A DNA stretch of 64,000 nt from Candidatus Bathyarchaeota archaeon (lineage in GTDB: Archaea; Thermoproteota; Bathyarchaeia; Bathyarchaeales; Bathycorpusculaceae). The stretch lies in NCBI GenBank assembly GCA_963733095.1, contig CAVTBV010000009.1, positions 128,001 to 192,000 of the forward strand, given 5' to 3'. The translations under genes were made by a program, and so were the position numbers. The notes under the pieces were generated by a model, which was not told where the DNA came from, made no database searches, and saw only the letters and a program-made list of their open reading frames with translations. Below, in pieces: positions 6,182-61,231 of the stretch (positions are counted from its first letter, which is position 1; each line of letters opens with the position of its first letter).

Positions 6182-8881
6182 ATGAATATGCGAAATCTAA
6201 CGAACAAAAATAGCGCTATTTTAGTCATTGTGCTTATGATCGTTTCAATGGTATCAGTAATTGCATCACAAACAGGAAATGTGCAGGCCGCAAATACTAT
6301 TCCAACATATGCGTACATTAACGTAGCTCCTAACCCCTGCGGCGTTGGTCAAACAGTGACAGTTAACTTCTGGCTTGCTGTACCAAACGCAGACCAAGAG
6401 CTTGTCACAAACATGACAGTTCTTATAACTCATCCAGATGGAACCACTGAGACACTTGGACCATTTACCTCAGATCTAACTGGCGGCACATATACTCATT
6501 ACACTCCAAACTCACTGGGTAACTATTCATTCCAATTCATATACGGCGGACAAACACTCATCGGAGCCCCTAACGCTTTCGGAGGCCCTACATTTGCAGG
6601 ATACGTTAACCTACCGAGCAAAAGTGCACCCGTAACTCTTTTAGTGCAACAAAGTCCAGCGACCGGCATTCCATTTACTCCACTTCCATCAAACTGGTGG
6701 CAGACTCCAATTAACGCTGAAAACGTTCAAAATTGGGCTTCCATAGGTGGAGGATGGATGGGATACGCTGCAAACACTTTCGCAATAACAGGCGGATATA
6801 ATGCTACCGGCAACTATAACCCATACACTACGGCCCCAACCACCGCCCATATACTTTGGACGAAGCCTTGGTGTATAGGAGGCGTAGCTGGTAGAGAACT
6901 TGGAAATGACGAACAAAACAGCGCATTTTGGACAACCTCGCAGTACAACCCCAAATTTGCGCCAGTCATAATGAACGGCATACTATACTCAACATGGTAC
7001 ACTACTACCACAAGCAGTCAACAAGGAATTATGGCCACAAACTTGTATACTGGAGCAACTATGTGGGTAATAAACACAACTAATCCACTAAGATGCGGTA
7101 TGATGGTCAACTTTGAAAACATAAACCAATATGGCGTTGTTGGTCCATATATCATTGCCCAAGAGGGCGGCGGTGGCATATTTGGCGGTGGAACAATCAA
7201 CTGGCTATTGTATGATGCCATGACAGGACAATACCTCTGCAAAATTGCCAACGCTCCAAGTTTCGTTTTCCTTGGTCAAGACGCGAATGGAAACATTATT
7301 GGTTATGCATTCAACAACACTGCTGGCACAATGCTCGCATACCCTAACGGACGATTTGGTGCGTTCGGCAATCCAATTCCTGGAGTATCCTATACCATTA
7401 AGAACACCACTACCTATGGACCCGCTTTGGAAATGTTCAACTTGACAGCAGCTATGCAGCAAACCGCTTTGAACTGGGGGATCTCACAAGGCACCGTATA
7501 TCAGTGGCAAGACGGACTAGAGTGGGTTGTTCAATCATTACCCCCTGTTGTTAACGGCATTGTCACGACAGGTCTGGGCACTTCTGCTTTCGGCTATTCA
7601 GCGTGGTCAGGTGATACGCTAGTCATGACTACCGGTGCAACTTCTGTCCAAGAAAACCTAGGATGGCAAGTCGAAGCAGGCTTTAGCACAAAAGATGGCT
7701 CATTGTTGTGGATACAAAACAGGACCGGAGGCGTATTCTCGCCTTTCACAAGAACAAACGGTCCGCCTTCAGCAGCAGCAGGAGTCTACGTTGAAATAAA
7801 CTTTGCAACATATGACATGGAGGCTTTCTCTCTAGCTACAGGTCAAAAAGTATGGGAAAATAGCCTCAACGTGCCAATGGCTAACGGTAAAATGCCAAAC
7901 ACCTACGACGAGTACGGCTTCCGATGTGTCCCAGACACAACCAACGGCGTATTGTACACTTGGGCATTAGGCGGAGATGTTTGGGCTGTTAACCTTACGA
8001 ATGGCGACATCATTTGGTCCTTTAGTACTGAACAGGTTAATGGAGATGCAGGCACTGAAACACCCTACGGTATCTACCCAATATGGGTCTTCTCTTGCGA
8101 AGCTTTGGCTGGTAGCCCGAGCCCAATACTATATCTCTCTGAAGGTCACGAATACAGTCCACCACTATTCCACAACGCACATAGATTTGCACTAAATGGC
8201 ACAACTGGAGAACTAATTTGGAGCAATCTTGCTTTCGACGACACGGCAACAGCAGTAGCATACGGCGTATTGACGACATTCAACTCCTACGACGGACAGA
8301 TTTACGCTTACGCCAGAGGACCAAGCCAAACAACAGTTAGCGCACCACAGCTCGGTGTAACAACCGCTACACCCGTGACAATTACGGGTTCAGTAACTGA
8401 TGTCTCTGCAGGATCACAGCAAGAGGCAGTTGCAGCAAACTTCCCCAACGGATTACCCTGTGTTTCCGATGACAGCATGACTCATTTCATGGAATCCGTA
8501 TATGAGCAACAGGAAATGCCACATAACATCACTGGAGTCCCAGTAACAATATCTGTTACTGACTCTAACGGCAACTACAGAGATATCGGCACTGCTATGA
8601 GCAATGCATATGGTACATACAGCTTAACTTGGACCCCTGATATTCCAGGTGATTACACCGTTACTGCAACTTTTGAAGGGACAGGAGGCTATTATCCATC
8701 ATCGGCAGCAACTGCTTTCTACGCCAGCGAATCAACGGCGGCAACTCCAGGGCCAACAGCATCCACTTCAAACTTAGCAACGATATCAGATCTAATGACC
8801 TACATAATCGGTGCAGCAATCGCAATAATTATAGTAATCGTCATAGTTGGCATTGTAATAGTGACGCGGCTCAAAAAGTAA
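6182..8881 (+). CDS. Large secreted, membrane-anchored PQQ-like beta-propeller protein with Ig-like domains
   Basis: Signal peptide; PNPCGVGQ Ig-like start; propeller repeats (TG..MW, YDAMTG, NLTNGDIIW); WTPDIPG.Y; Thr-rich linker; C-terminal TM helix ending RLKK. Confidence 0.8.
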   Translation: MNMRNLTNKNSAILVIVLMIVSMVSVIASQTGNVQAANTIPTYAYINVAPNPCGVGQTVTVNFWLAVPNADQELVTNMTVLITHPDGTTETLGPFTSDLTGGTYTHYTPNSLGNYSFQFIYGGQTLIGAPNAFGGPTFAGYVNLPSKSAPVTLLVQQSPATGIPFTPLPSNWWQTPINAENVQNWASIGGGWMGYAANTFAITGGYNATGNYNPYTTAPTTAHILWTKPWCIGGVAGRELGNDEQNSAFWTTSQYNPKFAPVIMNGILYSTWYTTTTSSQQGIMATNLYTGATMWVINTTNPLRCGMMVNFENINQYGVVGPYIIAQEGGGGIFGGGTINWLLYDAMTGQYLCKIANAPSFVFLGQDANGNIIGYAFNNTAGTMLAYPNGRFGAFGNPIPGVSYTIKNTTTYGPALEMFNLTAAMQQTALNWGISQGTVYQWQDGLEWVVQSLPPVVNGIVTTGLGTSAFGYSAWSGDTLVMTTGATSVQENLGWQVEAGFSTKDGSLLWIQNRTGGVFSPFTRTNGPPSAAAGVYVEINFATYDMEAFSLATGQKVWENSLNVPMANGKMPNTYDEYGFRCVPDTTNGVLYTWALGGDVWAVNLTNGDIIWSFSTEQVNGDAGTETPYGIYPIWVFSCEALAGSPSPILYLSEGHEYSPPLFHNAHRFALNGTTGELIWSNLAFDDTATAVAYGVLTTFNSYDGQIYAYARGPSQTTVSAPQLGVTTATPVTITGSVTDVSAGSQQEAVAANFPNGLPCVSDDSMTHFMESVYEQQEMPHNITGVPVTISVTDSNGNYRDIGTAMSNAYGTYSLTWTPDIPGDYTVTATFEGTGGYYPSSAATAFYASESTAATPGPTASTSNLATISDLMTYIIGAAIAIIIVIVIVGIVIVTRLKK

Positions 8882-49562: not shown

Positions 49563-49980
49563 CCTCTGGTATGCTTGGCTCTGGTGCTGAGGCGCTTTGA
49601 CCTTCAGTGTCAGTAACTGCTGGCGCTGGCGGTTTTCCTAAGTTCAGTATCCAATCGGTTAGTTTGGGGCAACTTTTGGGGGAAAGGGCGGTTGTGGGGT
49701 CGCAGCGTGCGTTGTCTGGGCATAATAAGCATGGGCAATCCACGATGGTTTCTATGGATGCAGGCAGCCTTTTGGGGTAGAGCCTATAGGTCCATCTGCC
49801 TTCTTGGAGTTCTTTTTCCCTGCGGATAAGCCCCTTCTCTTCTAGTTTAATCGACACGCGAGAACCTTCGCGGCTGCTTGCGCCGAGTTCACGCCATAAA
49901 TCTGATTGCAGTACACCCTGATAACCTGTACCGACGACGTAGTGAAGTGCTTTCTGTTCAAGGTCATTACGCTTAGGCAT
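49531..49980 (-). CDS. TFE-beta / RPC39(C34)-like wHTH-[4Fe-4S] protein
   Basis: GVLQS.LW..L...SRE.SR...KLE wHTH plus PC..CP....C......P..C..L..W cluster motif. Confidence 0.85.
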   Translation of the reverse strand: MPKRNDLEQKALHYVVGTGYQGVLQSDLWRELGASSREGSRVSIKLEEKGLIRREKELQEGRWTYRLYPKRLPASIETIVDCPCLLCPDNARCDPTTALSPKSCPKLTDWILNLGKPPAPAVTDTEGQSASAPEPSIPEDDSVAESLDT

Positions 49981-50017
49981 TTATGATCAGTTCCAAATAA
50001 TACAGTAATATAAGCGT

Positions 50018-50025
50018 TGGATTCA
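50018..50025 (+). repeat. Candidate attL core TGGATTCA
   Basis: Identical 8-mer at 60164-60171; nearby imperfect repeats. Confidence 0.4.
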
Positions 50026-50119
50026 CATAAAAATATGTTTCCTTAGCTGTAGCTGAGAATATATCTACCATCTTTAGTTTTTTTGAAAAGCTTTTTAACG
50101 ATAGAGAGGTTGTTAGCAA

Positions 50120-51490
50120 TTGAGCGATTTGACTCAAGCTAATGAAAAATGGGTTCTATCCTTTGAAAGTGGTCGCAATTGGCTACCTCACTTGCCTAGT
50201 TCAAGTACTAAAGAGCCGTTCATTCGACACCTAAAGAAATACTCTCTATGGGCTAAAATGAATCCTGATGAATTGATAAATTTCAAGATTGAAGGTTTAA
50301 AAGCAGTAGCAACAGAAAAGGAATTCCAAGCCGAAAGAATGCTAGAGAAGTATCTTAGACAAACTGGAATGACGCAATCAGTTGCAGCATACGCCAAAAA
50401 CGCCATTATTAGCTTCTATAAGCACAATTGGAGAGAACTTAATTCAGAAGTCGCTAGAGATATTGAGCCACCAGAAGCAAAAAAGAGAACGCCTAAGCTA
50501 GAAGAAATTCAAGAGCTAGAAAGCAACTGTACAACCGCTAGAGATAGGGCTTTAATTTGGTTTTTCCCGTCTACTGGTTTTAGGATAGGAACGCTAACCA
50601 AGCTATTTAGAAATGACCTTAAACCTACTGGTGACGCTGAAGTACCTTATTATCTGGAAATAGAAGCTAAGAGACTAAAAGGCTCTGGAATTGGTAAGTA
50701 CAAAGGGCTTAAACAAATCACCTTTGTTAACAGCTTTGTTTGGGCTAAGATGCAAGATTACTTCGCTGAAGCTAAAAGAAGAGGTTTTAATCTAACTGAG
50801 GATTCACCGCTATTTATCGGATACAAAGGTCGATTTACTAAAGAAGAAAGAAAGCTATCCGTTAAACCCAAAAAAGTTAGAGCAATGACTGAAGGAGCAA
50901 TCAATAACACTTATGACAATGCATCACTAGCCGCTTGGAAAGACTTAGAGGTAAAACGCTTTTCTCCCCATGACAACAGAGATGTTTTACAGAGTGCTTT
51001 AGAGAATGTCGTTAACGATAACATGATAGCTCCTATGTTAGCCCATAAACCAAAAAACGCTGTTGACTTCCACTATTCAAGCCACTTATGGCAAGAGCTA
51101 TTACCAAAATACAAATTGGCATTACCAAAACTAATCCCACAAACCACAGCAGAACTTAAAATAGAAATAAACCAACAGAAAGCAACTAACCAAAAACAGC
51201 AATCCGAAATAGAAGCCATAAAAGAAGAAATGAATGCAAGATTTGAAAAACTAGCTTCTCTTTTGAAAAGTGATGCAAAAGTATTACCGCCTGAAAATCA
51301 AGATGAAATATTTAGATTAAAGACAAATGGATTACTATCGGAAAGTGAAATAGCACAAAAGCTTAAACTTAAACTTAAGGCAACGGAAGACCATTATATT
51401 GATGAAAACGGAAAAGAATTAGACCCTAAAACTTTAACGGAAGAGCAAAAGAAGAAATTTAAATCTGTAACGGAGTATTGGGAACTTTAA
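50120..51490 (+). CDS. int: Tyrosine recombinase/integrase with coiled-coil and HTH-like C-terminal extension
   Basis: RDRAL..F..STGFR (Arg), LKG (Lys), SPHDNR (HxxR), LAH (His), FHY (Tyr). Confidence 0.9.
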   Translation: MSDLTQANEKWVLSFESGRNWLPHLPSSSTKEPFIRHLKKYSLWAKMNPDELINFKIEGLKAVATEKEFQAERMLEKYLRQTGMTQSVAAYAKNAIISFYKHNWRELNSEVARDIEPPEAKKRTPKLEEIQELESNCTTARDRALIWFFPSTGFRIGTLTKLFRNDLKPTGDAEVPYYLEIEAKRLKGSGIGKYKGLKQITFVNSFVWAKMQDYFAEAKRRGFNLTEDSPLFIGYKGRFTKEERKLSVKPKKVRAMTEGAINNTYDNASLAAWKDLEVKRFSPHDNRDVLQSALENVVNDNMIAPMLAHKPKNAVDFHYSSHLWQELLPKYKLALPKLIPQTTAELKIEINQQKATNQKQQSEIEAIKEEMNARFEKLASLLKSDAKVLPPENQDEIFRLKTNGLLSESEIAQKLKLKLKATEDHYIDENGKELDPKTLTEEQKKKFKSVTEYWEL

Positions 51491-51711
51491 TTTACGCTCT
51501 TTTCCCACATCTTTTTTATTCTCTTTTTACCCTAAGATTCTAAATTATAGCCAACTATCAAAGATTGATACTAAGATAGTATGTGATTCTAAACTAAGAT
51601 AGTATAGATAATATAATATAGGTAGTAAAGTTAGTGTAATAAGTACACCCATAGCATAGTTAACGACTAAATTTTCTGTTGATTCTATTGGACCTAGCCT
51701 ACATTTTCGCT

Positions 51712-52214
51712 TTAGTTTGTCGGATAGTGGCTTTAGTCACTATCAATAATCTTGTCTTATCATGGACTCAATAAGGGATATTGTTAATTATCTAGAGTAA
51801 ATTGTGCGGATACATCGCTAGTGATTTTTATCCGACACAATATTTTAGGAATAAAGCAGAGAGTTAACTAACAGACTACAGCGAACAGTTTAATCTTGGA
51901 TAATGTCGGCTCTGGTTGTGTCGGTCTTCAAATAAGAAGATAAAGAGCCGAAAGTGTCGGTCATATGGGAAGACTGCTATCTCTGGGCTATAAGAGTTTG
52001 TCGTATAGATAACTGAGATAACTTATGCTTTAGCCCATATTCCCGACAGAACGGCACTATCTTATCGCCTATTCCTTATTATAATATCTATACCGACACA
52101 GAGAACACCAGAATATAGATAAGATTATAAATTAACTAAGATAACCTACACTTATAGACAGATAACCGACAAACTAACTCCGCTACCCGATTGAATCCGA
52201 CACCAAATCCGACA
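51712..52214. repeat. Non-coding region with 10 CCGACA/TGTCGG hexamers and nested inverted repeats
   Basis: TGTCGG at 51718, 51904, 51919, 51955; CCGACA at 51832, 52043, 52093, 52166, 52197, 52209. Confidence 0.8.
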
Positions 52215-52315
52215 GCCAGCATCCATAGTTAAGCTACCCCTGAAAGAAAATCATTGTCCTCACGATGGCTATTCTGAAGCCTGAATATTAGGTTTATTTT
52301 TCATGGTTTCTTTGT

Positions 52316-52699
52316 TTAGTGAAGATTTTTTATTTCCTTATAACAAGTATCTAATTTTCTTAAGAGTTTAACAACTCCATAATACGCAATCAATGAAGTT
52401 ATTGCAGCTACGAAAAATAAAAAAGTATTTATGGTGAAAGCTGGAGGTTGGTTTATGAATAATTGTATTGCAAATACTGTAAAAGTGACTCCACCAGCAA
52501 AAAACCCAAAAATTCCAGCTAAGTAGATTTGAAGGTCTGAATTGAGTTGGGCTAACCTGATTTGTAAGGCTCTATCTTCAATTATAGCATTTCTATTTTG
52601 AATAGCAAAGGCTTTTTCAATCTTTTCTTTAATGGCTAAATATTTGTCTAGCGCTTTATTGAATTGGTCTAAGCCTTTATCAACATCACTATCAGGCAT
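52316..52699 (-). CDS. Element membrane protein (two TM)
   Basis: Helical N-terminus followed by two hydrophobic segments. Confidence 0.7.
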   Translation of the reverse strand: MPDSDVDKGLDQFNKALDKYLAIKEKIEKAFAIQNRNAIIEDRALQIRLAQLNSDLQIYLAGIFGFFAGGVTFTVFAIQLFINQPPAFTINTFLFFVAAITSLIAYYGVVKLLRKLDTCYKEIKNLH

Positions 52700-52755
52700 T
52701 TTTATCTGGTTGTTCGTATGGCGTTAACTGCTTAAAAGTTTTATCTTTAGTTTTG

Positions 52756-52938
52756 TTATCGGTGTCTATCATAGTCGTTTTTAGATAACACATAACCAGC
52801 TAGAGAAATTAAGAGAAAACCGACAACGCTCATGATAATTTGACCGATTAAACTTAAAGCCAAAACGTTAACTAAACCAAAAAGCAAAACAACTACTCCT
52901 AAAGCAAGAACAAATTTGAAAGCGTCTACTAATCCCAT
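52756..52938 (-). CDS. Element small hydrophobic protein (two TM)
   Basis: 60 aa; GAGGT SD upstream. Confidence 0.75.
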   Translation of the reverse strand: MGLVDAFKFVLALGVVVLLFGLVNVLALSLIGQIIMSVVGFLLISLAGYVLSKNDYDRHR

Positions 52939-52950
52939 ATTATTTACCTC

Positions 52951-53277
52951 TTAGAAGTCAAACGGTGAACGCTTTTTCTTTTTTCTGCTCGGTGGCTCAC
53001 CTAAGAAGGCATTTTCATTAACTTGAGGAACTTCCCACATCTTGTTAAGCCTCTTATTGTACGCTATTCGGTCACGTTCATCTTGCCGTCTTTCTCTTTC
53101 TTCATTCTGCACAAAAGCTTGACCTCTGGCATATCCTCTTCCAGCATGATAATGTTCTCTTTCAATTTGAGCGTAATATTGCCTATCTTGCTCTTGTATT
53201 CGTTTTCTTGCTTCATTCTCACGGTAGGCTCTTTGAATACCTCTTCCGAGCAATTTACCAAATATCCATAGACCCAT
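52951..53277 (-). CDS. Element Arg/Glu-rich hypothetical protein
   Basis: 108 aa, amphipathic N-terminus, basic tail; in an operon with the 60-aa gene. Confidence 0.7.
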   Translation of the reverse strand: MGLWIFGKLLGRGIQRAYRENEARKRIQEQDRQYYAQIEREHYHAGRGYARGQAFVQNEERERRQDERDRIAYNKRLNKMWEVPQVNENAFLGEPPSRKKKKRSPFDF

Positions 53278-53469
53278 TCCAAAATAGTAAAAAGTTTTAC
53301 CAAATCCTATAAGAATTCTCTTGCCGATATTCTTTGAATTTGCCGTTTTAGATTCCAGCTTGTAAGTGTTTGTTTGAAAGTCTATTTATAATCTGTGGTA
53401 AACTCTTTCACTCGCTTTTTTGCATCGCTTGTTTTGCCTTAGTTCTTGTTTGTGTTTTGCTTGTGAAAA

Positions 53470-54117
53470 CTAACTAGGTGTTAAACCTAGAAAATTTGCC
53501 AGAATGAAGGAAATAAAGATAGCAGTTATGAAAAGAGCGAAAGAAATATAGAAAATTCTAAGGTATATTTTTGTGCGCATTTTACCCGTAAATTGTTTCT
53601 GTCCTGAGAGTTTGCAAATATGTTTTTCAAGTGACCTTGTTATTATTGGTGAAATAAAAACTTGAGATACCATTAATCCCATAGCAAATGCGTTTTTAAC
53701 GCTCTGTAAAAGGATGGGATTTGTTGAATTAAGGATTACATTTAACGCTATGAATGGAGTTACCAAATAATATATCAAACAGCTAAAAAGCAAACCCCAC
53801 GAAAGAATACGATACTCCATTGAGTCAGTCAACATTCCCCTTAACCCTATAGAATACGAAGCTAAGAGTGAGAGAATAATTCCTATTATTGAGAGTGCAA
53901 AACTGCTTGAAAATCTGTTAAAGAAAAAGGCGTGTTGACTTACAAGGATTCCAAGAGAGAATGTTGCAATTGCCACTAGGATGTTGTATAAACTATCTAT
54001 CTTATTGAGAACATTATCTCTTTTTCGCTCTTTTTTCGAGTTCAGAGATTCTTCTAGAAGTATGTCGATTTTTTGCTCTAAGGATTTGCTTTCTTCTGTT
54101 ACCACATATTTTCGCAC
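53470..54117 (-). CDS. Element polytopic membrane protein
   Basis: About 5 hydrophobic segments. Confidence 0.7.
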   Translation of the reverse strand: MRKYVVTEESKSLEQKIDILLEESLNSKKERKRDNVLNKIDSLYNILVAIATFSLGILVSQHAFFFNRFSSSFALSIIGIILSLLASYSIGLRGMLTDSMEYRILSWGLLFSCLIYYLVTPFIALNVILNSTNPILLQSVKNAFAMGLMVSQVFISPIITRSLEKHICKLSGQKQFTGKMRTKIYLRIFYISFALFITAIFISFILANFLGLTPS

Positions 54118-54194
54118 TCGATAGATTGTTTTAGGAAAGCTTTTAGTTTTTGCTCTTTTGCGCTTTTTGAATTTAATGACTTAGTTATTTAATA

Positions 54195-54926
54195 TTACTT
54201 GATGTTCTCTAACTCTAGTGTAAGCTGTTGAATTTCGTTATCAACCTCTTCATTCTCTTTAAGCTCTTTTGAATAGAGTTCTCGAGTTTTAATTTGAAAT
54301 TGTTCAAAGAAATTATCGACCAAAGATTGATATTGATTTAGTGCAAGCTTTAAATCAATCTCATTGTGATTTTCGATATATCTTACAAAACCTTCACGTT
54401 CAAGTATTGGGTAAAGTTCTTCTTTTCTTTCAAGCAAGCTTTCCTTTGTTAAGAGTATGCTCTGTCTAAATGGTTGACCAATTCCCATTCTAGAGAAGTG
54501 TGCTACCAAATCTAGTAATTCATAGTGTTGGGTTAAATGTCGCAAGCATCTGCTAAAATTATATGAATCATCGGACTGTAAAGAACCAATTTTTGTTTTA
54601 TAAAAATCACTTATTCTTTCGTACCTTTCACTTAACTTCTTCCCCTGAGCAATCAATGTATAGGTGCTAGCAAGGTAGTTATGAAGTAATCTGGAAAGTT
54701 CTGCAAAGAACAAAACTCTTTCTTTCATTATGTTTATCAAAAATGTTGTATTTGCTTCATAGCTATTAATTGCCGTAGACAACTCTTGATAGTTTTTGTT
54801 AACCGCATAATGAGTGTTTCTAAAGTTATTGAGCATCTGAGAAACTTTAGTGCCGTACAATGTTCCTTTCTTTTCGTCTAGTAACGCCAATTTTTCTAAA
54901 ATTTGCAGTCTTCTATTTTGGCTCAT
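54195..54926 (-). CDS. HEPN-like protein (RxxxxH)
   Basis: All-helical; R.LHNYLAS..TL followed by LRHLTQHY; start at MSQNRR. Confidence 0.6.
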   Translation of the reverse strand: MSQNRRLQILEKLALLDEKKGTLYGTKVSQMLNNFRNTHYAVNKNYQELSTAINSYEANTTFLINIMKERVLFFAELSRLLHNYLASTYTLIAQGKKLSERYERISDFYKTKIGSLQSDDSYNFSRCLRHLTQHYELLDLVAHFSRMGIGQPFRQSILLTKESLLERKEELYPILEREGFVRYIENHNEIDLKLALNQYQSLVDNFFEQFQIKTRELYSKELKENEEVDNEIQQLTLELENIK

Positions 54927-55216
54927 TAGTATCTTTTGATAAGTGTACACTTTACTTTTAGTTCTTTGCCCTTTTGCCCTTATGTAAAAGTTAGGTACTC
55001 TCTGGAAAAATAAGAAGCCCAAACTAAGCCCCGTTAGAAAAAAATATACTCACACAACCTAAAAAGACCTATAATGACTTATTTTTTAAATTGGTTTAAA
55101 ATTTATGCCCTAAAAAAAAATTGCGCTCTGATTCTTCCTTCTTCTGTACGTTAATAGGGTGTCCACTAGTATATTATAATATAATATTATTTTATATTAT
55201 AACTACTAAACTATAA

Positions 55217-55882
55217 CTAACTACTACTAACTAACCCTCTATTCCCATATCTCTGATTATTGATTGGCTCACTATCGTTCGCTTCTGTGTCACATATGGG
55301 TATAGAGTGATAATTATCTAAGGAAGGATTGATATCCTGTGAGTGTATAATTTTTTCTTGGGCTATCTTTTTATTTTCTTCTATTTGCTTAAGTTGGTTA
55401 ATAATAAAGTCATTTTTAATTTTACATAAACGGTTGAATTCTTCATTTATGAGGTTTGAATCTAGAAAATAGCGTGTATTGTTATCTGGTAGTATGTTGT
55501 CATTGACCGTTATGTGTGAGTCTGGGTTTTGTCTAAGATATTTACCCGCTAGCAATGCATCGGTGAAGTCATAAAAAACCAATCGGTCAACTTTAGTTTT
55601 GGCTATGTTAAATTGTCGGTAATAATCCAGAATTGCTTCTTTTATTTTAAGTTTTAAATCGTGCCTATTTATAACGCCTTTTTTAGCTACCAAGTTTGGA
55701 TGTTGTTCTAACTGTCTAGCTCTAACCGTCTTTTGCCAATCGGTCAGGTTATTTTCAGTTTCTTCTTGTTCGTCAATATAGTTTTTCAGAACTAAAAGTA
55801 CATGACTGAATTTCCATTGCTCAGAACTTAGACCCGTTAACTCTTCTCTACTCTTCATACTTTTTCCCTTCACTTTTGACAT
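55217..55882 (-). CDS. Element hypothetical protein
   Basis: 221-aa ORF with no recognised motif. Confidence 0.7.
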   Translation of the reverse strand: MSKVKGKSMKSREELTGLSSEQWKFSHVLLVLKNYIDEQEETENNLTDWQKTVRARQLEQHPNLVAKKGVINRHDLKLKIKEAILDYYRQFNIAKTKVDRLVFYDFTDALLAGKYLRQNPDSHITVNDNILPDNNTRYFLDSNLINEEFNRLCKIKNDFIINQLKQIEENKKIAQEKIIHSQDINPSLDNYHSIPICDTEANDSEPINNQRYGNRGLVSSS

Positions 55883-56437
55883 TAGAAATAGCCTTAAGCT
55901 ATACTCTATCGTAAGTATTAAATGTTACGATACTATTTAAATATTTTTCCTTTAAAAAATAAATGTTGTTACATGTCCTAAAAAAGACATATGTTAATAG
56001 AAGGGAAGGTTCGTGTTAGTCGAACCTGAAGAGTTAATTAACATATATGTGCTTCCACCCTTATAAGCTTTATGGCGTAATAAGACACCATATATGGCGA
56101 AAGTTAACGTTAAAAGAGCAAACCCGTGTTAGTCGGGAATGCCAAAGTTGAAGGATTTTTTAGGTTAAAAAAAGAGTGTCTATGGTGGTGAAATGGATGA
56201 AATGTATAAGCTACCTATGCCGACACCCAAACATAGGATAATAGCTTATAAGTGAAGTTCACGAATTTAAATATTTTTATTGCTAGCAACAATCAATTAT
56301 TTTGTAGTTAGGAATATGGTTATATTATACATATTAACCGCAAAATCACTAAAAAGAGTTATTGGAAATAAAAAGACATAAATAGCTATATGAAGCTATA
56401 CGACTCTATAGCAAATATTAATATGGGAGATATGTAA

Positions 56438-56716
56438 ATGGCAAAACATGTTCAAAAACAATATTCAATAAACACTAGTTTAGATATTAATGAAAACCTA
56501 AGAATCCTGCGTTATAAGACTAATATGAACAATGCAGCTATTCTAAGCCAAATCATAACGCCACTAGCAGAGAAATTAGGCAACCAAGAAAAACCATGCG
56601 GTTTTATAGTTTATACCGTTAATGACCAAATAATCATTCAAACATATGGTTTTGGCAGTATTGTTTGTTCTGGTAAAGCCACCGCAACATTAAGCGATAT
56701 TTTAGGAGTTGCTTAA
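56438..56716 (+). CDS. Element hypothetical protein (possible ribbon-helix-helix N-terminus)
   Basis: QKQYSINTS strand followed by two helices; first gene of the rightward operon; GGGAG SD. Confidence 0.65.
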   Translation: MAKHVQKQYSINTSLDINENLRILRYKTNMNNAAILSQIITPLAEKLGNQEKPCGFIVYTVNDQIIIQTYGFGSIVCSGKATATLSDILGVA

Positions 56717-56718
56717 CC

Positions 56719-56925
56719 GTGACTAAACAAAATCCTCAAACATTGAAAGAATCTACTGACCTTATCATTCAAGGGATTCAAGCCAAACAACTAAGAGAAA
56801 AAACATTAAACGGTGAAATTATCCAAACCTATGATGTTAAAGGTGAACTTGATTCAATCCCAAGAAATTTTGCTAGAAAGCTAGACAAACCTTGCGATGA
56901 GCTATCTAAAGAGAAGGAAGTCTAG
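56719..56925 (+). CDS. Element hypothetical protein
   Basis: AGGAG SD, tight operon spacing. Confidence 0.7.
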   Translation: MTKQNPQTLKESTDLIIQGIQAKQLREKTLNGEIIQTYDVKGELDSIPRNFARKLDKPCDELSKEKEV

Positions 56926-56927
56926 CC

Positions 56928-57506
56928 ATGACTGAAGACGAAAAAGAAAATACCTATTCCGTTCCATTGCCAAAAGACAGTAAAACAATTAAGATGACCA
57001 TTGACGCAACAGCTAGAGAACAGCGTTTACTAGAAGACCTAAACAAAGCTAACCAAACTATAGGCGCACTCATGGGGCAACATAAAAAAGAATTCATCGA
57101 AGGAGAACAACGACCAGCCCCGAACGGTGACCAAGAGGATACTTCAACTATTGACCGTGAAGATAGAGCTAGAAACGGAAACGATACAAGAATACAATCT
57201 GCTGGGAGCTACGTAGATGTAGATTGGGTTAAAGGTTCAACGGTTCCAGAGGTCATTGAGAAGATTGAGTACTTAAGTAAGGTTGCAGATAACAAAGAAG
57301 TTTTTAAGAAAATCCATAATTCTCTGGTAAAAAAGGTGCTTCATGGGAAGCCAATTTCTATACAGTTTGAAGGTAGCCTAAAACAATTAGCCACTACAAG
57401 AGAAAAACAAATTCCAGAATTTTGTGATGACTCAACACGAAAACAGCTTCAATCTTGGAACACTAAAGTTAGAGCCAATAGGGTAAATTGGTCGGAGATA
57501 GAATAA
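56928..57506 (+). CDS. Element hypothetical protein
   Basis: 192 aa, tight operon spacing. Confidence 0.75.
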   Translation: MTEDEKENTYSVPLPKDSKTIKMTIDATAREQRLLEDLNKANQTIGALMGQHKKEFIEGEQRPAPNGDQEDTSTIDREDRARNGNDTRIQSAGSYVDVDWVKGSTVPEVIEKIEYLSKVADNKEVFKKIHNSLVKKVLHGKPISIQFEGSLKQLATTREKQIPEFCDDSTRKQLQSWNTKVRANRVNWSEIE

Positions 57507-58003
57507 TGTCACTAGAAAAGAAACATGTTCCAAAAAGTGGATTTTGGAAACAAGAACATGACGGAAAAATGTATTGGGTCGAAAGTGACAAATTTGGAAA
57601 CCTAATAAAACTTTATGACCCCTTAGAAATTGAAGGCATAAGTCGTAGTGCAAATTACACTATAGTTTTTTTACGTGAATACACAGATACAAATTCTTTC
57701 AACGGCAAAATAAAAAAATGGTTTGCACAAGACATAAAGATGCATATAGGAGAAAATGTTGATTCATCGATAGTGATAAGGTTCGATTCTTATTCACGTA
57801 AATTCTTTATATCTGATTTAAAACCCGTTGGTCAAACTTTTTTAGCTCCACTTGAAAGCACACCTGAGTTAATTGTTACAAAAAGCGAACCTTACCCCGT
57901 AGACCAAATACAAGCGAAAGAAATCTTAGCTAAATATTCCTATGGATTCGGCAAGGTCGAAGTTGACGCTCAGGGAAATATCGAATATTATCAGACCTGT
58001 TGA
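57506..58003 (+). CDS. Element hypothetical protein
   Basis: TAATG coupling to the previous gene; GGAG SD. Confidence 0.7.
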   Translation: MSLEKKHVPKSGFWKQEHDGKMYWVESDKFGNLIKLYDPLEIEGISRSANYTIVFLREYTDTNSFNGKIKKWFAQDIKMHIGENVDSSIVIRFDSYSRKFFISDLKPVGQTFLAPLESTPELIVTKSEPYPVDQIQAKEILAKYSYGFGKVEVDAQGNIEYYQTC

Positions 58004-58007
58004 TTCT

Positions 58008-58202
58008 ATGACCCGTTGCGACTATTGCCACCAAGTTATTTTTCACAAAAATAATGAACGATTTTGTAACAGAGACCATAGTCACGCATATGTTCGCAAA
58101 CTGAGCGAAGTTTCAAGACGCTACATGTATAATTCACCTGAGCAACTTGAAGCCATAAAATTATATAAAAAACTAGGGAAGGATTACAAAAATGGTTTAT
58201 GA
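58008..58202 (+). CDS. Element small zinc-binding protein
   Basis: MTRCDYC...RFCNRDH (treble-clef/TRASH-like). Confidence 0.6.
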   Translation: MTRCDYCHQVIFHKNNERFCNRDHSHAYVRKLSEVSRRYMYNSPEQLEAIKLYKKLGKDYKNGL

Positions 58203-58323
58203 AAATTATAATGAATGTTCATGTGGCTTCGATAAAGCTGAGACCCGTATAGTTAATGGTCAAGTCTGGATAGTTTGCAGTAATCCCTTATGTCAAAAAG
58301 TACGTTATCGTTCATGGTTCTAA
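58192..58323 (+). CDS. Element 43-aa zinc-ribbon microprotein
   Basis: MVYENYNECSCGFDKAETRIVNGQVWIVCSNPLCQKVRYRSWF. Confidence 0.6.
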   Translation: MVYENYNECSCGFDKAETRIVNGQVWIVCSNPLCQKVRYRSWF

Positions 58324-58821
58324 ACCACTCTCCCCCTAGTTGGAGATTATATACTAATCAAATAATCTCAAAAAAATATGGGCTATTCTAAGGCTGTTTT
58401 TCTTTCTCTCACATAATCGCCTTATTTCCTCACTATAGCTTTTAGGCTAGCTTTTCTTTTTTGGCTTATGCATATCGATTATTATGCTATATCGACCATA
58501 ATAAAATAAAATCAGAGCTAACCCTAAAAATAATTTTTCAAAATATTTTTTGTTTTAGGTCTCTCTATGTGTAAAAAGTTGAAAAAAGGGGCTTAAAATG
58601 GGCTTCTTTTCCATTTTTTTCAAAATTTTCCCTATTTTAGACCCTATTTAAACCAAAAGTTTGTTAAGTTTGCTTCTCAAATCGCTTAAAATACAACTTT
58701 TGGTCCATGCTCACCCAGAGTATTAAAATATTTTCAAAAAGGAGCGTGAAAAAAGACGAAAAATGATAAAACGAAAAAATCTAAGACGGAACCTCAAAAA
58801 GAAGCGTTAAATTACAATTCG

Positions 58822-60111
58822 TTGATAAAAAAAATTGCTGAGAATGGTGACCTTTGCGTTCTCGGCATGAAAGGCACATGTAAAACCACTCTGCTTATGC
58901 ACTTAGCTAGAAACATAATGGAAGACCTAGACAACCACTTGATTATATTTGAGACCTTCCCGAAATGGCAAAAGGAATTCGATATTATACCCTACATGAT
59001 AATAAGCGATAGTGACGTTCAAGAAAAAGAAAATTCGCCATATATGCAAGAAAATTATTCTTATATTCAATGGTCTAAAAACTATGAGATAGCTAACGAA
59101 AGCGAAGTTTTAGAATTTCTAAAGACTAATAGAAATTGCTTATTCCTTATCGAAGCTGAAGACATGGAACGAATAAGCGCCTTTATGGAATTCGTGATTT
59201 ATACATGCTACAGAAAACAATACTTGAGAGCTAAAGCTGAAAACTTAGAGACTGTTAACGCTAATTATTGGTTCTTATGCGAAGAGGCACATAACCTTTT
59301 AGACAGTACAGTACTATCTAAAAAAACCTTTAACAAACTCCGAAAAATGCAGAGCGAATTCAGAAACTTAAAGATGCATCTTATAGTTGTGACTTTACGG
59401 TTACAATCACTTAGCCCAAAAATTAGAAGTACCATGTCTCTTTTGTGTTCCCGTGTAAGTTTGGATGACTACATGCTTAAGCTGAGAGCGTTATTAAGAA
59501 ATAGCGAATACAGAGACCTTATCACAACATTACCCAAAGGCGAATTTGTTTTTCCAGAGACAGACCAAAAATTAACAACTAAGCCATTTAATCAAGCTGG
59601 AAAGCCATATGAATGGAAACCAGAACCAGAGCCAACTATAGAAGAGACCACAGAAGAGCCTAGCTCAGAACCAGAACAGCCTAAAACCATTATGGGATTT
59701 ATAAAGAATCTATTCCACAAAAGCAAACCTGAGATTATAACCCAAAAAGAATACGATAGACTAAACAACTTAGACGATAAAGAATCAGAACCAGAGATAA
59801 AGATAGTTAGGGAAAAAGTTATAGCTATCACAATTAAGAAACCCAGAGCCACAAAACCAAAAACTACAGAGCCGATTAAAGAACCTGAAAAATCAAATAT
59901 GGAAAAGCTAAGAGATGTTTATTCCTCAGATAGCCAAGCATCTAAAGATTATGAAGCTTGGAAGAAAAAAGCTTTAGCCGAAAAGAAGCAAACAGAAACT
60001 AAAGAAGCAGAAACCGAAAGCAAAGAGAGGGAAGACAACATAAATGAAGATTCAAAAGGCGATTTTTTAGCCCTAAATGATGATGATTTAATGTTTAGTG
60101 AAGAGGAATAA
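58822..60111 (+). CDS. FtsK/HerA-superfamily P-loop ATPase with long charged low-complexity tail
   Basis: Walker A GMKGTCKTT, Walker B FLCEEAH, FRN..hhhhT.R...LSP.IR, LPKGEF. Confidence 0.75.
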   Translation: MIKKIAENGDLCVLGMKGTCKTTLLMHLARNIMEDLDNHLIIFETFPKWQKEFDIIPYMIISDSDVQEKENSPYMQENYSYIQWSKNYEIANESEVLEFLKTNRNCLFLIEAEDMERISAFMEFVIYTCYRKQYLRAKAENLETVNANYWFLCEEAHNLLDSTVLSKKTFNKLRKMQSEFRNLKMHLIVVTLRLQSLSPKIRSTMSLLCSRVSLDDYMLKLRALLRNSEYRDLITTLPKGEFVFPETDQKLTTKPFNQAGKPYEWKPEPEPTIEETTEEPSSEPEQPKTIMGFIKNLFHKSKPEIITQKEYDRLNNLDDKESEPEIKIVREKVIAITIKKPRATKPKTTEPIKEPEKSNMEKLRDVYSSDSQASKDYEAWKKKALAEKKQTETKEAETESKEREDNINEDSKGDFLALNDDDLMFSEEE

Positions 60112-60163
60112 AAAAAATGAACAACCACAAAAGTCAAAAATCATATATCCTTAGTTGGGGCTG

Positions 60164-60171
60164 TGGATTCA
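60164..60171 (+). repeat. Candidate attR core TGGATTCA
   Basis: Identical to 50018-50025; 19 nt upstream of the kae1 ATG. Confidence 0.4.
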
Positions 60172-60190
60172 AATATGTATCCCTAGTTAA

Positions 60191-61231
60191 ATGTGGAATG
60201 ACATGAGAAAAACCAAGAACGATGATTCAGGCAAATACTGTTTAGGCGTTGAATCTTCAGCTGACGACTTTGGAGTCGGCATCGCGAGCTTTAGCGGCGA
60301 AATTCTGGCTAACAAATCAGAAGGCTATATCCCAGCAGAAGGCGGAATCCACCCGAGAGAAGCCGCAAGGCACCATTCCGAGGTTGCGGACAAAGTTCTA
60401 AAAGAAGCCTTATCCAAAGCTGGCGTGAAACCGCGGGAATTGTCCGTTATTGCCTTCTCTCAAGGTCCAGGCTTAGGACCTAGCCTGCGAACAGGAGCCA
60501 CAGTTGCCCGAGCTTTAGCCTCATTCCTTGAGGTTCCTTTGGTAGGCGTCAATCATTCCATTGCCCACATCGAAATTGGAAAACTCAAAACAGGAGCCAA
60601 AGACCCCGTTACGCTTTATGCTTCAGGCGGCAACACTATGGTCACAGCTTTCGAGTCGGGACGCTACCGTGTCTTTGGCGAAACCTTAGATATTGCATTG
60701 GGTAACTGCCTTGACGTTTTCGCAAGGGAAGCAGGGCTTAAACATAAGAAGGGTCTGCCTCTTGGCGCAGCCGTGGAGCAGTTGGCGGCTAAGGGTGAGC
60801 GGCTTGTTTCCTTGCCGTATGTGGTTAAAGGCATGGATTTGTCGCTTAGCGGCTTATTGACTGCAGCTATAACCCACTTACAAAAGGGTGATTGTCGGCT
60901 CGAGGACCTGTGTTATAGTCTTCAAGAACACGCTTTCTCCATGGTAACAGAGGTGACTGAGCGGGCGTTGGCACACACCGAGAAGAAAGAAGTTTTGCTC
61001 ACGGGCGGAGTTGCAGCCAATAAACGACTCCAATTGATGCTTAACTCGATTGCTTTAGAACATGATTCAAGCTTTAGCGTGGTTCCCCTAGAGTTTGCAA
61101 CTGACAACGGCGCTATGATTGCTTGGACAGGCGTTTTGGCGTTTAAACATGGGTTGTTTACGGCTTTGGATGAGAGTTTTGTAAAACTACGTTGGCGAGT
61201 CGACAAGGTGGATGTGCCATGGATACAATAG
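60191..61231 (+). CDS. kae1: KEOPS subunit Kae1 (t6A synthesis)
   Basis: LG.ESSA, GGIHP.EA..HH, GPGLGP.L, NH..AH, SGG.T, GET.D.A.G, DNG.MIA. Confidence 0.96.
   Translation: MWNDMRKTKNDDSGKYCLGVESSADDFGVGIASFSGEILANKSEGYIPAEGGIHPREAARHHSEVADKVLKEALSKAGVKPRELSVIAFSQGPGLGPSLRTGATVARALASFLEVPLVGVNHSIAHIEIGKLKTGAKDPVTLYASGGNTMVTAFESGRYRVFGETLDIALGNCLDVFAREAGLKHKKGLPLGAAVEQLAAKGERLVSLPYVVKGMDLSLSGLLTAAITHLQKGDCRLEDLCYSLQEHAFSMVTEVTERALAHTEKKEVLLTGGVAANKRLQLMLNSIALEHDSSFSVVPLEFATDNGAMIAWTGVLAFKHGLFTALDESFVKLRWRVDKVDVPWIQ

Follow-up and report, generated by a model that had tools for sequence, protein, structure and literature searches.

A dense array of CCGACA boxes in a non-coding gap of an integrated element of a Bathyarchaeota archaeon

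Box-type replication origins, such as oriC with its DnaA boxes or plasmid origins with their iterons, gather many short boxes in both orientations and at irregular spacing, with AT-rich flanks and additional families of sites, on a small replicon. We describe here a non-coding gap with these same features, located in a stretch of 64,000 nt from a Candidatus Bathyarchaeota archaeon (hereafter the window: assembly GCA_963733095.1, contig CAVTBV010000009.1, positions 128,001 to 192,000). The gap holds an array of CCGACA/TGTCGG hexamers and is part of a 10.15-kb integrated element, in which it directly follows the gene of a tyrosine integrase (int). It appears to be a variant, in kind, of the known repeat-box control regions. 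It differs from the box-type origins in having a core of only 6 bp, no recognised initiator gene next to it, a place between convergent genes, a long nested dyad, and no sequence relation to a known origin.

Three other kinds of system share some of these traits. Archaeal oriC regions, with their inverted origin recognition boxes (ORB) and Orc1/Cdc6, likewise have box groups of opposite orientation flanking a centre. However, the gap matches the ORB at chance level only, the element has no orc1/cdc6, and the candidate origin of the host has no CCGACA. The intergenic region of inoviruses and the single-strand origins of rolling-circle replicons are also hairpin-rich non-coding stretches of several hundred nucleotides in small integrating elements. 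In contrast to these, the element has no recognised HUH Rep, its ATPase resembles HerA and the B204 protein of Sulfolobus turreted icosahedral virus (STIV) rather than the membrane-anchored pI/Zot, and the gap shows no strand bias. Finally, Ter sites and the system of FtsK-orienting polar sequences (KOPS) and dif combine opposed short polar sites at a convergence with an FtsK/HerA-class ATPase and a tyrosine recombinase, as does the element. Here, the polarity is weak, the centre lacks a recombination core, and the complementary flanks are specific to box pairs.

The element as a whole can be compared with ArcVen-P3, a 9.5-kb archaeal provirus whose integrase is accompanied by a packaging ATPase of divergent FtsK-like type (PMC4158269). 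The two have in common a length of about 10 kb, direct repeats, a terminal integrase, an FtsK/HerA-class ATPase, and a majority of unannotated and membrane proteins. The element studied here differs by lying between protein genes, not in a tRNA gene, and by the lack of a recognised jelly-roll capsid protein, and that source, as far as consulted, describes no comparable non-coding array. The literature searched contains no account of the element family or of an array of this kind; the supplementary tables of PMC10848311 and PMC4158269 could list similar proviruses.

The box array and its symmetry

The gap lies between int and a 127-aa gene (52316-52699, - strand), and its longest open reading frame (ORF) has 35 amino acids (aa), in agreement with a preliminary description of the window, made from the sequence alone, which reported none of 60 aa or more. 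The same description counted ten exact hexamers in about 500 nt. We find all ten in the same places, within 497 nt: read on the + strand, boxes 1, 3, 4, and 5 are TGTCGG and the others CCGACA (Table 1). Their clustering is beyond chance. There are 1107 boxes in the 2.84-Mb genome (0.39 per kb), which gives an expectation of 0.2 per 500 nt and a probability of 1.8e-14 for at least ten in one segment of that size. The gap is the densest cluster of the genome, where no other 500-nt segment has more than 6, and the window as a whole has 46 boxes, against 19.0 +/- 4.1 in shuffles (46 was reached in 0 of 100). In a hexamer-cluster scan, the gap obtained p = 1.9e-13, and the best clusters of 13 of 15 other loci ranged from 1e-5 to 1e-8. 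The two exceptions are locus L057 (2.2e-15), where 13 copies of GCTCCA/TGGAGC fall inside a 506-aa ORF according to the ORF table, and locus L058 (3e-10), whose cluster consists of iterons. Triplets of CCGACA are present in 49 of the 332 genomes of the host family; among the matches listed, most are fixed-period tandem or coding repeats, and none is an irregular array in two orientations like that of the gap. The host genome has two smaller clusters, at C1:118665-118927 and C1:156513-157399. Both are within or overlap coding sequence, and we treated them as chance (the former consists partly of Pro-Thr codons, as read by eye).

The boxes share a core of 6 bp only. Their flanks are weakly conserved (consensus WWCCGACAMA), their spacing is irregular (12 to 114 nt), and about three degenerate sites accompany the ten exact ones. 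These traits have the look of protein sites and not of a single helix, which suggests that the array is bound by a protein. Boxes 9 and 10, both AATCCGACA, are spaced by 12 nt, and in the minimum free energy (MFE) structures box 2 pairs locally, as a hairpin, with the degenerate box TGTGCGGATA near 51803. The spacing has no mirror symmetry: left-hand intervals of 201 and 36 nt correspond to right-hand ones of 73 and 50 nt. The array had also been called polarised, more firmly than the data bear out. Nine of the ten boxes fit two opposed groups switching near 52000, but the polarity is weak, as random orientations would produce it with P = 0.086 (8.6%), and it blurs further once the degenerate boxes are counted.

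All the long-range complementarities, hairpins, and the duplicated word of the preliminary description were found. Positions 51712-51726 are complementary to 52163-52177 (14/15, or 93%; pair I4), 51917-51925 to 52092-52100 (inside pair I2), 51955-51969 to 52034-52048 (13/15), and 51899-51913 to 51944-51958; the local hairpin at 51723-51744 was confirmed, and ACTAAGATAGTAT occurs twice, at 51570 and 51593. Three pairs of boxes, 51718/52166, 51919/52093, and 51955/52043, also match in their flanks. These pairs and TGGGCTA/TAGCCCA form four helices nested around ~52005. The centre of this dyad encloses a degenerate box, AGTTTGTCGTATAG (51995), and the tandem AGATAACTG/AGATAACTT, and the cumulative GC skew reaches its maximum at 52019-52049. 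Besides the boxes, the gap contains four more repeat families, whose copies are both direct and inverted. Two AT-rich modules flank the boxes; their low GC content (Table 1) has to be set against that of the whole element, which is only 31-37%. The left module comprises GATTCTAAA twice, the two copies of ACTAAGATAGTAT, and GTATAGATAATATAATA, with CTAAGATA at 51571 and 51594. The right module has TATTATAATATCTATAC, an inverted copy from the left module, TATAGATAAGATTATAAATTAACTAAGATAAC, a direct copy, and a third CTAAGATA.

Folding confirmed the self-complementarity of the region against shuffles on both strands. With RNA parameters, the 531-nt core obtained z = -3.79 (+ strand) and -4.40 (- strand), and none of 100 shuffles was as stable; with DNA parameters, the values were -4.19 and -3.01, again matched by no shuffle. 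When the ten boxes were fixed and the remainder shuffled, the excess of stability persisted (z = -3.15 and -3.90, 0/150), so the complementarity exceeds the boxes. Of four equal-length controls within the element, those from the two other intergenic regions obtained -2.2 and -1.1, and those from coding sequence +0.3 and +2.4. The RNA ensemble is well defined: the centroid is close to the MFE on both strands (-143 versus -147 kcal/mol on the - strand, -121 versus -131 on the + strand), whereas four controls have centroids of -39 to -75 for MFEs of -93 to -111. The strands are also equivalent in their use of G-U pairs (14/157 on +, 17/161 on -).

The gap is a singleton. It has no second copy in its own 2.84-Mb genome, against which tblastx matched it only to itself, no DNA similarity in the genomes of 60 relatives, and no similarity by blastn or tblastx in 102 fetched loci (818 kb; tblastx 0 at E <= 0.1). 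An insertion derived from a miniature inverted-repeat transposable element (MITE) or an insertion sequence (IS) was rejected, given the single copy in the assembly, as was a decayed protein gene, given the lack of a tblastx match in the 102 loci. The feature is genuine and striking, and it belongs to an element family of which little is known. The only sequencing run listed for the stretch is a DNA run with a small share of it; its four 151-nt contigs lie at 49626-50543, over the 5' region of int, and leave the gap uncovered. No RNA run is listed.

Table 1. Features of the gap and of the element that contains it (window positions; D and I numbers are repeat labels).
Feature	Position	Strand	Remarks
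Non-coding gap (main feature)	51491-52315, 825 nt	.	Between convergent genes
Left AT-rich module	51510-51660	.	GC 0.22-0.27; repeat families D1, D3, D4, D6, I1
CCGACA box 1	51718-51723	-	Outer arm; partner box 8; pair I4
CCGACA box 2	51832-51837	+	Sole + box of left half
CCGACA boxes 3, 4, 5	51904-51960 (51904, 51919, 51955)	-	I10, I2, I6, D12
Nested-dyad centre	51984-52037	.	TGGGCTA ... TAGCCCA; D2, D5
CCGACA boxes 6, 7	52043-52098 (52043, 52093)	+	Partners of boxes 5 and 4; I6, I2
Right AT-rich module	52076-52146	.	GC 0.25 (at 52080-52170); I1, I5, D3, D4
CCGACA boxes 8, 9, 10	52166-52214 (52166, 52197, 52209)	+	D11, I4
attL core AAATATGTTTCCTTAG	50031-50046	+	Left element end
Tyrosine integrase, 456 aa	50120-51490	+	Weak Pfam Phage_integrase (E 2e-4), weak NCBIfam XerA
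Leftward gene arm, running towards gap	52316-55882	-	p127, p60, p215, p108, p275, p221
Conserved core module p92-p68-p192-p171-p86	56438-58202	+	Common to ~10-kb low-GC elements, same genus
p429, P-loop ATPase	58822-60111	+	N-terminal HerA/FtsK fold, residues 1-273
attR core AAATATGTATCCCTAG	60171-60186	+	Right element end, just before kae1 (60191)

Possible roles of the gap

The replicon hosting the gap is an integrated virus- or plasmid-like element. A bounded mobile replicon of this kind, with an integrase and an ATPase of the DNA-translocase type, needs cis sites for replication or packaging, and since it is small and mobile, an origin or replication control would be the most ordinary role for such a region. 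Our tentative explanation, with a probability of roughly 0.45, is that the gap is a cis-acting protein-binding hub in double-stranded DNA, most likely the origin or a replication-control region of the element. The self-complementarity, being equal on both strands, was counted in favour of a double-stranded reading. The preliminary description had offered three options: a structured non-coding RNA (ncRNA) linked to the recombinase, a folded single-stranded DNA (ssDNA) signal, and an origin or partition site with oppositely oriented protein-binding boxes. The last is the best fit; we infer that proteins bind at the gap and that its function is replication rather than partition, packaging, or transcriptional control. 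A sequence-specific protein, encoded by the element or by the host, would coat the two roughly opposed groups of 6-bp boxes. The AT-rich modules (51510-51660 and 52080-52170) would supply easily melted DNA, and the nested dyad centred near 52005 could extrude a cruciform or hairpin after unwinding. The region would then serve the excised circular form of the element as its replication origin or control region.

Arrays of short motifs recur in the element family, each specific to its element, and that of the gap is unique in sequence. The elements concerned are recognised by p171, whose family is found in low-GC elements of ~10 kb in 15 of the 332 genomes of the host family, mostly of the same genus. 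They share p92-p68-p192-p171 and a HerA-fold ATPase, and nearly all their proteins are unannotated (loci L054, L055, L056, L057, L061, L077, and L123, and the window at 56438-60111). In the survey of these 332 genomes, the CCGACA array was absent from the related elements. The element at L077, which shares p221, p92, and p68 with ours, has instead an array of 14 GTATCTTA motifs, two perfect palindromes of 18 bp (GTATCTTAATTAAGATAC) among them, and the core of this motif is the same CTAAGATA that occurs three times in the gap. This array (7440-8040) flanks and traverses a doubtful 150-aa ORF at the edge of the element, next to a CBS-domain gene of the host. It stands where the p221 gene arm of L077 ends, and the integrase gene is elsewhere. 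The place of the gap beside int looks incidental, and the gap goes with the end of the p221 arm. At L061, the 805-nt gap that follows int contains 13 copies of GCTAA and folds with z = -2.4 and -3.0, and L058 has two arrays of 10-bp tandem iterons. A different motif array in each element is what co-evolving pairs of proteins and sites would give.

Several observations weigh against an origin or replication-control region. Searches of Pfam, PHROGs, NCBIfam, and PADLOC recognised no replication initiator in the element or adjoining the gap, although one may have escaped recognition. The gap lies at the convergence of two gene arms, and the repeat-rich divergent region at 55883-56437 is a rival candidate for the origin. 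A pure binding-site model does not require complementarity beyond the boxes, nor the four nested helices. No homologue of the gap was found in the genomes and loci searched. The preliminary description had suggested comparing the regions downstream of homologous integrases. Related integrases occur in 27 of the 60 other genomes, and the eight downstream regions examined have neither CCGACA boxes nor a homologous gap. Three gaps behind related integrases fold like shuffles (z of -1.4/-2.2 for L123, -0.7/0.1 for L013, and 0.3/-0.1 for L011), with no array and no conserved module.

The nested helices and the well-defined ensemble would be explained if the gap acts as a folded single strand, in which TGTCGG and CCGACA are the two sides of helices. 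This would be either a structured ncRNA of ~470-530 nt or a folded ssDNA signal, such as a single-strand origin or packaging signal, exposed in the replication of the excised element. The z-scores of -3.0 to -4.4 under RNA and DNA parameters on both strands argue for it, as do the stability kept with the boxes fixed, the agreement between centroid and MFE that sets the gap apart from the four controls, and the pair-specific matching flanks with four helices nested around one centre. The - strand also has a single TATA-like match, TTTATAAT, which is upstream of the core at 52131, but a lone match of this sort is expected by chance in AT-rich DNA, and the gap has no terminator-like site. Neither energy nor G-U use favours one strand, which leaves the ncRNA option of the preliminary description with no specific support. 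Boxes 9 and 10 and several of the repeat families are unpaired. A search of Rfam 15 returned no family at gathering score, and nothing at E <= 10 save a chance-level small nucleolar RNA (E = 6.8); the preliminary description had likewise placed the region in no recognised family. As for an ssDNA signal, no HUH or rolling-circle Rep was recognised, and p429 has the fold of the HerA/B204 double-stranded DNA translocases with no membrane segment seen by eye, unlike the pI of inoviruses. We consider a folded strand somewhat unlikely. It is improbable that the gap is a novelty of either of two kinds, namely a new large folded element (~470 nt, with four nested helices built from CCGACA/TGTCGG as an ssDNA or RNA scaffold for replication or packaging, in a family of ~10-kb HerA-ATPase elements not described before) or a polar-site device of archaeal mobile DNA.

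Polar signals of this last sort would be a KOPS/dif-like guide steering the HerA/FtsK-type translocase to the centre, or a fork trap of the Ter kind where the circular element has its terminus, opposite an origin at 55.9-56.4 kb. The two opposed groups of boxes would fit, as would the convergence of the gene arms at the gap, 4.1 kb and 6.0 kb from the divergent region rich in inverted repeats, and the presence in one element of a HerA/FtsK-fold ATPase and a tyrosine recombinase. However, the polarity is not significant, the centre has no second att core or recognisable recombination core, and the pair-specific flanks and nested helices would be unneeded. To our knowledge, no polar system like KOPS or Ter is known in archaea, nor have directional DNA signals of this kind been described for archaeal viruses or plasmids, and we find the idea very unlikely. 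The integrase suggests another role, that of the boxes as arm-type sites of attP, because they adjoin int and because lambda-like attP has arm arrays in both orientations. This is largely refuted. The att cores lie at the ends of the element (50031 and 60171). From them, attP would re-form on the upstream side of int, with the nearest box at a distance of 1.67 kb or more, so the gap is not attP; moreover, the integrases found at the same site in two other genomes (75% identity in G004, 66% in G019) have no such boxes. The link to the recombinase proposed in the preliminary description is unsupported on the same grounds, together with the eight regions devoid of boxes and the L077 array that is away from int. 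Lastly, the repeated words could be chance survivals in a relic devoid of function, the product of a palindromic duplication or of the decay of a gene or insertion. The gap is a singleton, related elements do without it, and one inverted duplication followed by decay can yield nested dyads. Yet ten exact hexamers amid diverged flanks point to selection on the box rather than decay, the box spacing lacks the mirror symmetry of a duplication, and the gap has no translated similarity in the loci searched and is not a multicopy MITE, which makes a relic quite improbable.

Beyond a few cultured models, the signals for replication, packaging, and segregation of archaeal viruses and plasmids are almost unknown. 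The gap is a cis element with sharp limits and a clear box of 6 bp, and the replicon that carries it is small and bounded. Its array provides a handle to find the DNA-binding protein among ~12 candidates, which could in turn reveal how the family replicates or is packaged. Nested helices with a function would be a new structured element; an ordinary origin, for its part, would still be the first cis site put forward for the family. The observation is of limited value because it concerns a single instance without comparative support.

The element, its site, and its relatives

The element stands out as a drop in GC content from ~45% to 31-37% over 50.0-60.1 kb, bounded by 16-bp direct repeats. 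The two copies of this att repeat (AAATATGTWTCCYTAG) are identical at 14 of 16 positions and have no other occurrence in the window. Two other genomes have elements inserted at this site, and in an alignment of the three junctions the homology stops at the element end. On the left, the element is followed outwards by a MarR-like gene, ftsJ, and other housekeeping genes, and on the right by kae1 and bud32-like genes; there is no tRNA gene in the window. The intergenic site between the MarR-like gene and kae1 (window 49980-60191) is an integration hot spot in three genomes of the genus: the 10.15-kb element occupies it here, and different elements of ~5 kb, with related integrases and a shared att core, do so at L010 (G004:C22) and L011 (G019:C2). 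The last gene before attR has a similar 3' end in all three elements (window 59900-60190, L010, and L011) and differs in the remainder; in the 10.15-kb element, it ends in ...DLMFSEEE.

In the four databases given above, eight of the ten element proteins examined have no family match, the exceptions being the weak integrase matches and p429, and none was recognised as belonging to Rep, primase, Orc1, or HUH families. The proteins of the leftward arm have no match in these databases. By eye, p127, p60, and p215 are hydrophobic and look like membrane proteins; p108 is basic. Matches of p275 in the Atlas are unnamed clusters only. A sequence search of the PDB with p92 found no match; its N-terminus resembles a ribbon-helix-helix, by eye only. 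The ATPase p429 is better characterised. Seven of 12 members of its family match Pfam DUF87 (HerA), and its AlphaFold2 model (mean predicted local distance difference test, pLDDT, 84.9) has HerA hexamers and the B204 packaging NTPase of STIV/STIV2 as top Foldseek matches (E 3e-8 to 1e-6, probability 1.0). PADLOC gives only a weak match to mad8. No hydrophobic segment was seen when the sequence was read by eye, and the tail is acidic and disordered-looking. The protein p171 (57488-58003, + strand) belongs to a conserved beta-rich type of 165-171 aa and was modelled with confidence (pLDDT 83.6, predicted TM-score 0.75). Its model has no structural neighbour in the PDB or BFVD (best TM-score <= 0.24, no E <= 0.001) and may represent a new fold. 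A confident model with no fold match leaves a role of p171 as capsid protein unsupported, and no jelly-roll capsid protein was recognised elsewhere in the element.

The divergent region between p221 and p92 (55883-56437) is very AT-rich and has the highest count of inverted repeats in the window, with 27 complementary 8-mer pairs per 600 nt against a median of 3 (RNA z = -2.2). It is a candidate for an alternative origin or a promoter hub.

Closer relatives of p171 are known only as proteins (P0002, 77%, from a 5.7-kb contig; P0003, 71%, from a 9.7-kb contig). The viral contig collection gave no relative by the ATPase part of p429, by the integrase, or by alignments of p171 and of the ATPase. 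The alignment of p171 found none in the genome contig collection and one contig of 1.1 kb in the metagenome collection. Isolated fragments that match only the N-terminal 30-120 residues of this integrase family are scattered in related genomes (G010:C1, G029:C11, G016:C4, G003:C1, and G031:C21) and may be remnants of past integrations.

Three observations concern regions outside the element. The candidate origin of the host (G000:C1:63314-64124; L078 1-700) lies upstream of orc1/cdc6, and its ORB-like repeats (TCCAGTAGAA...GGGGTG) occur in both orientations. Mimicry of the host ORB by the gap was rejected: the gap has one match with two mismatches, which is at chance level, as 49 of 100 shuffles reach the total of the window. 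The only Rfam match of the window is a fluoride riboswitch (RF01734; 10461-10538, - strand), at 39.6 bits for a gathering score of 34. Finally, the iterons of L058 (5902-6779) are part of paired leader-repeat-tail modules that are also found at L092 (1440-1900) and on contigs C4, C8, C9, and C10 of genome G278. Each module has a conserved leader of ~50 nt (GTTT.GGGTTGCTTTCTTGAA...TTTGCAGGT), 4-7 tandem repeats of 10 bp, and a conserved tail; the repeats vary in sequence between modules, and in one genome the modules are multicopy, with 65 pattern matches.

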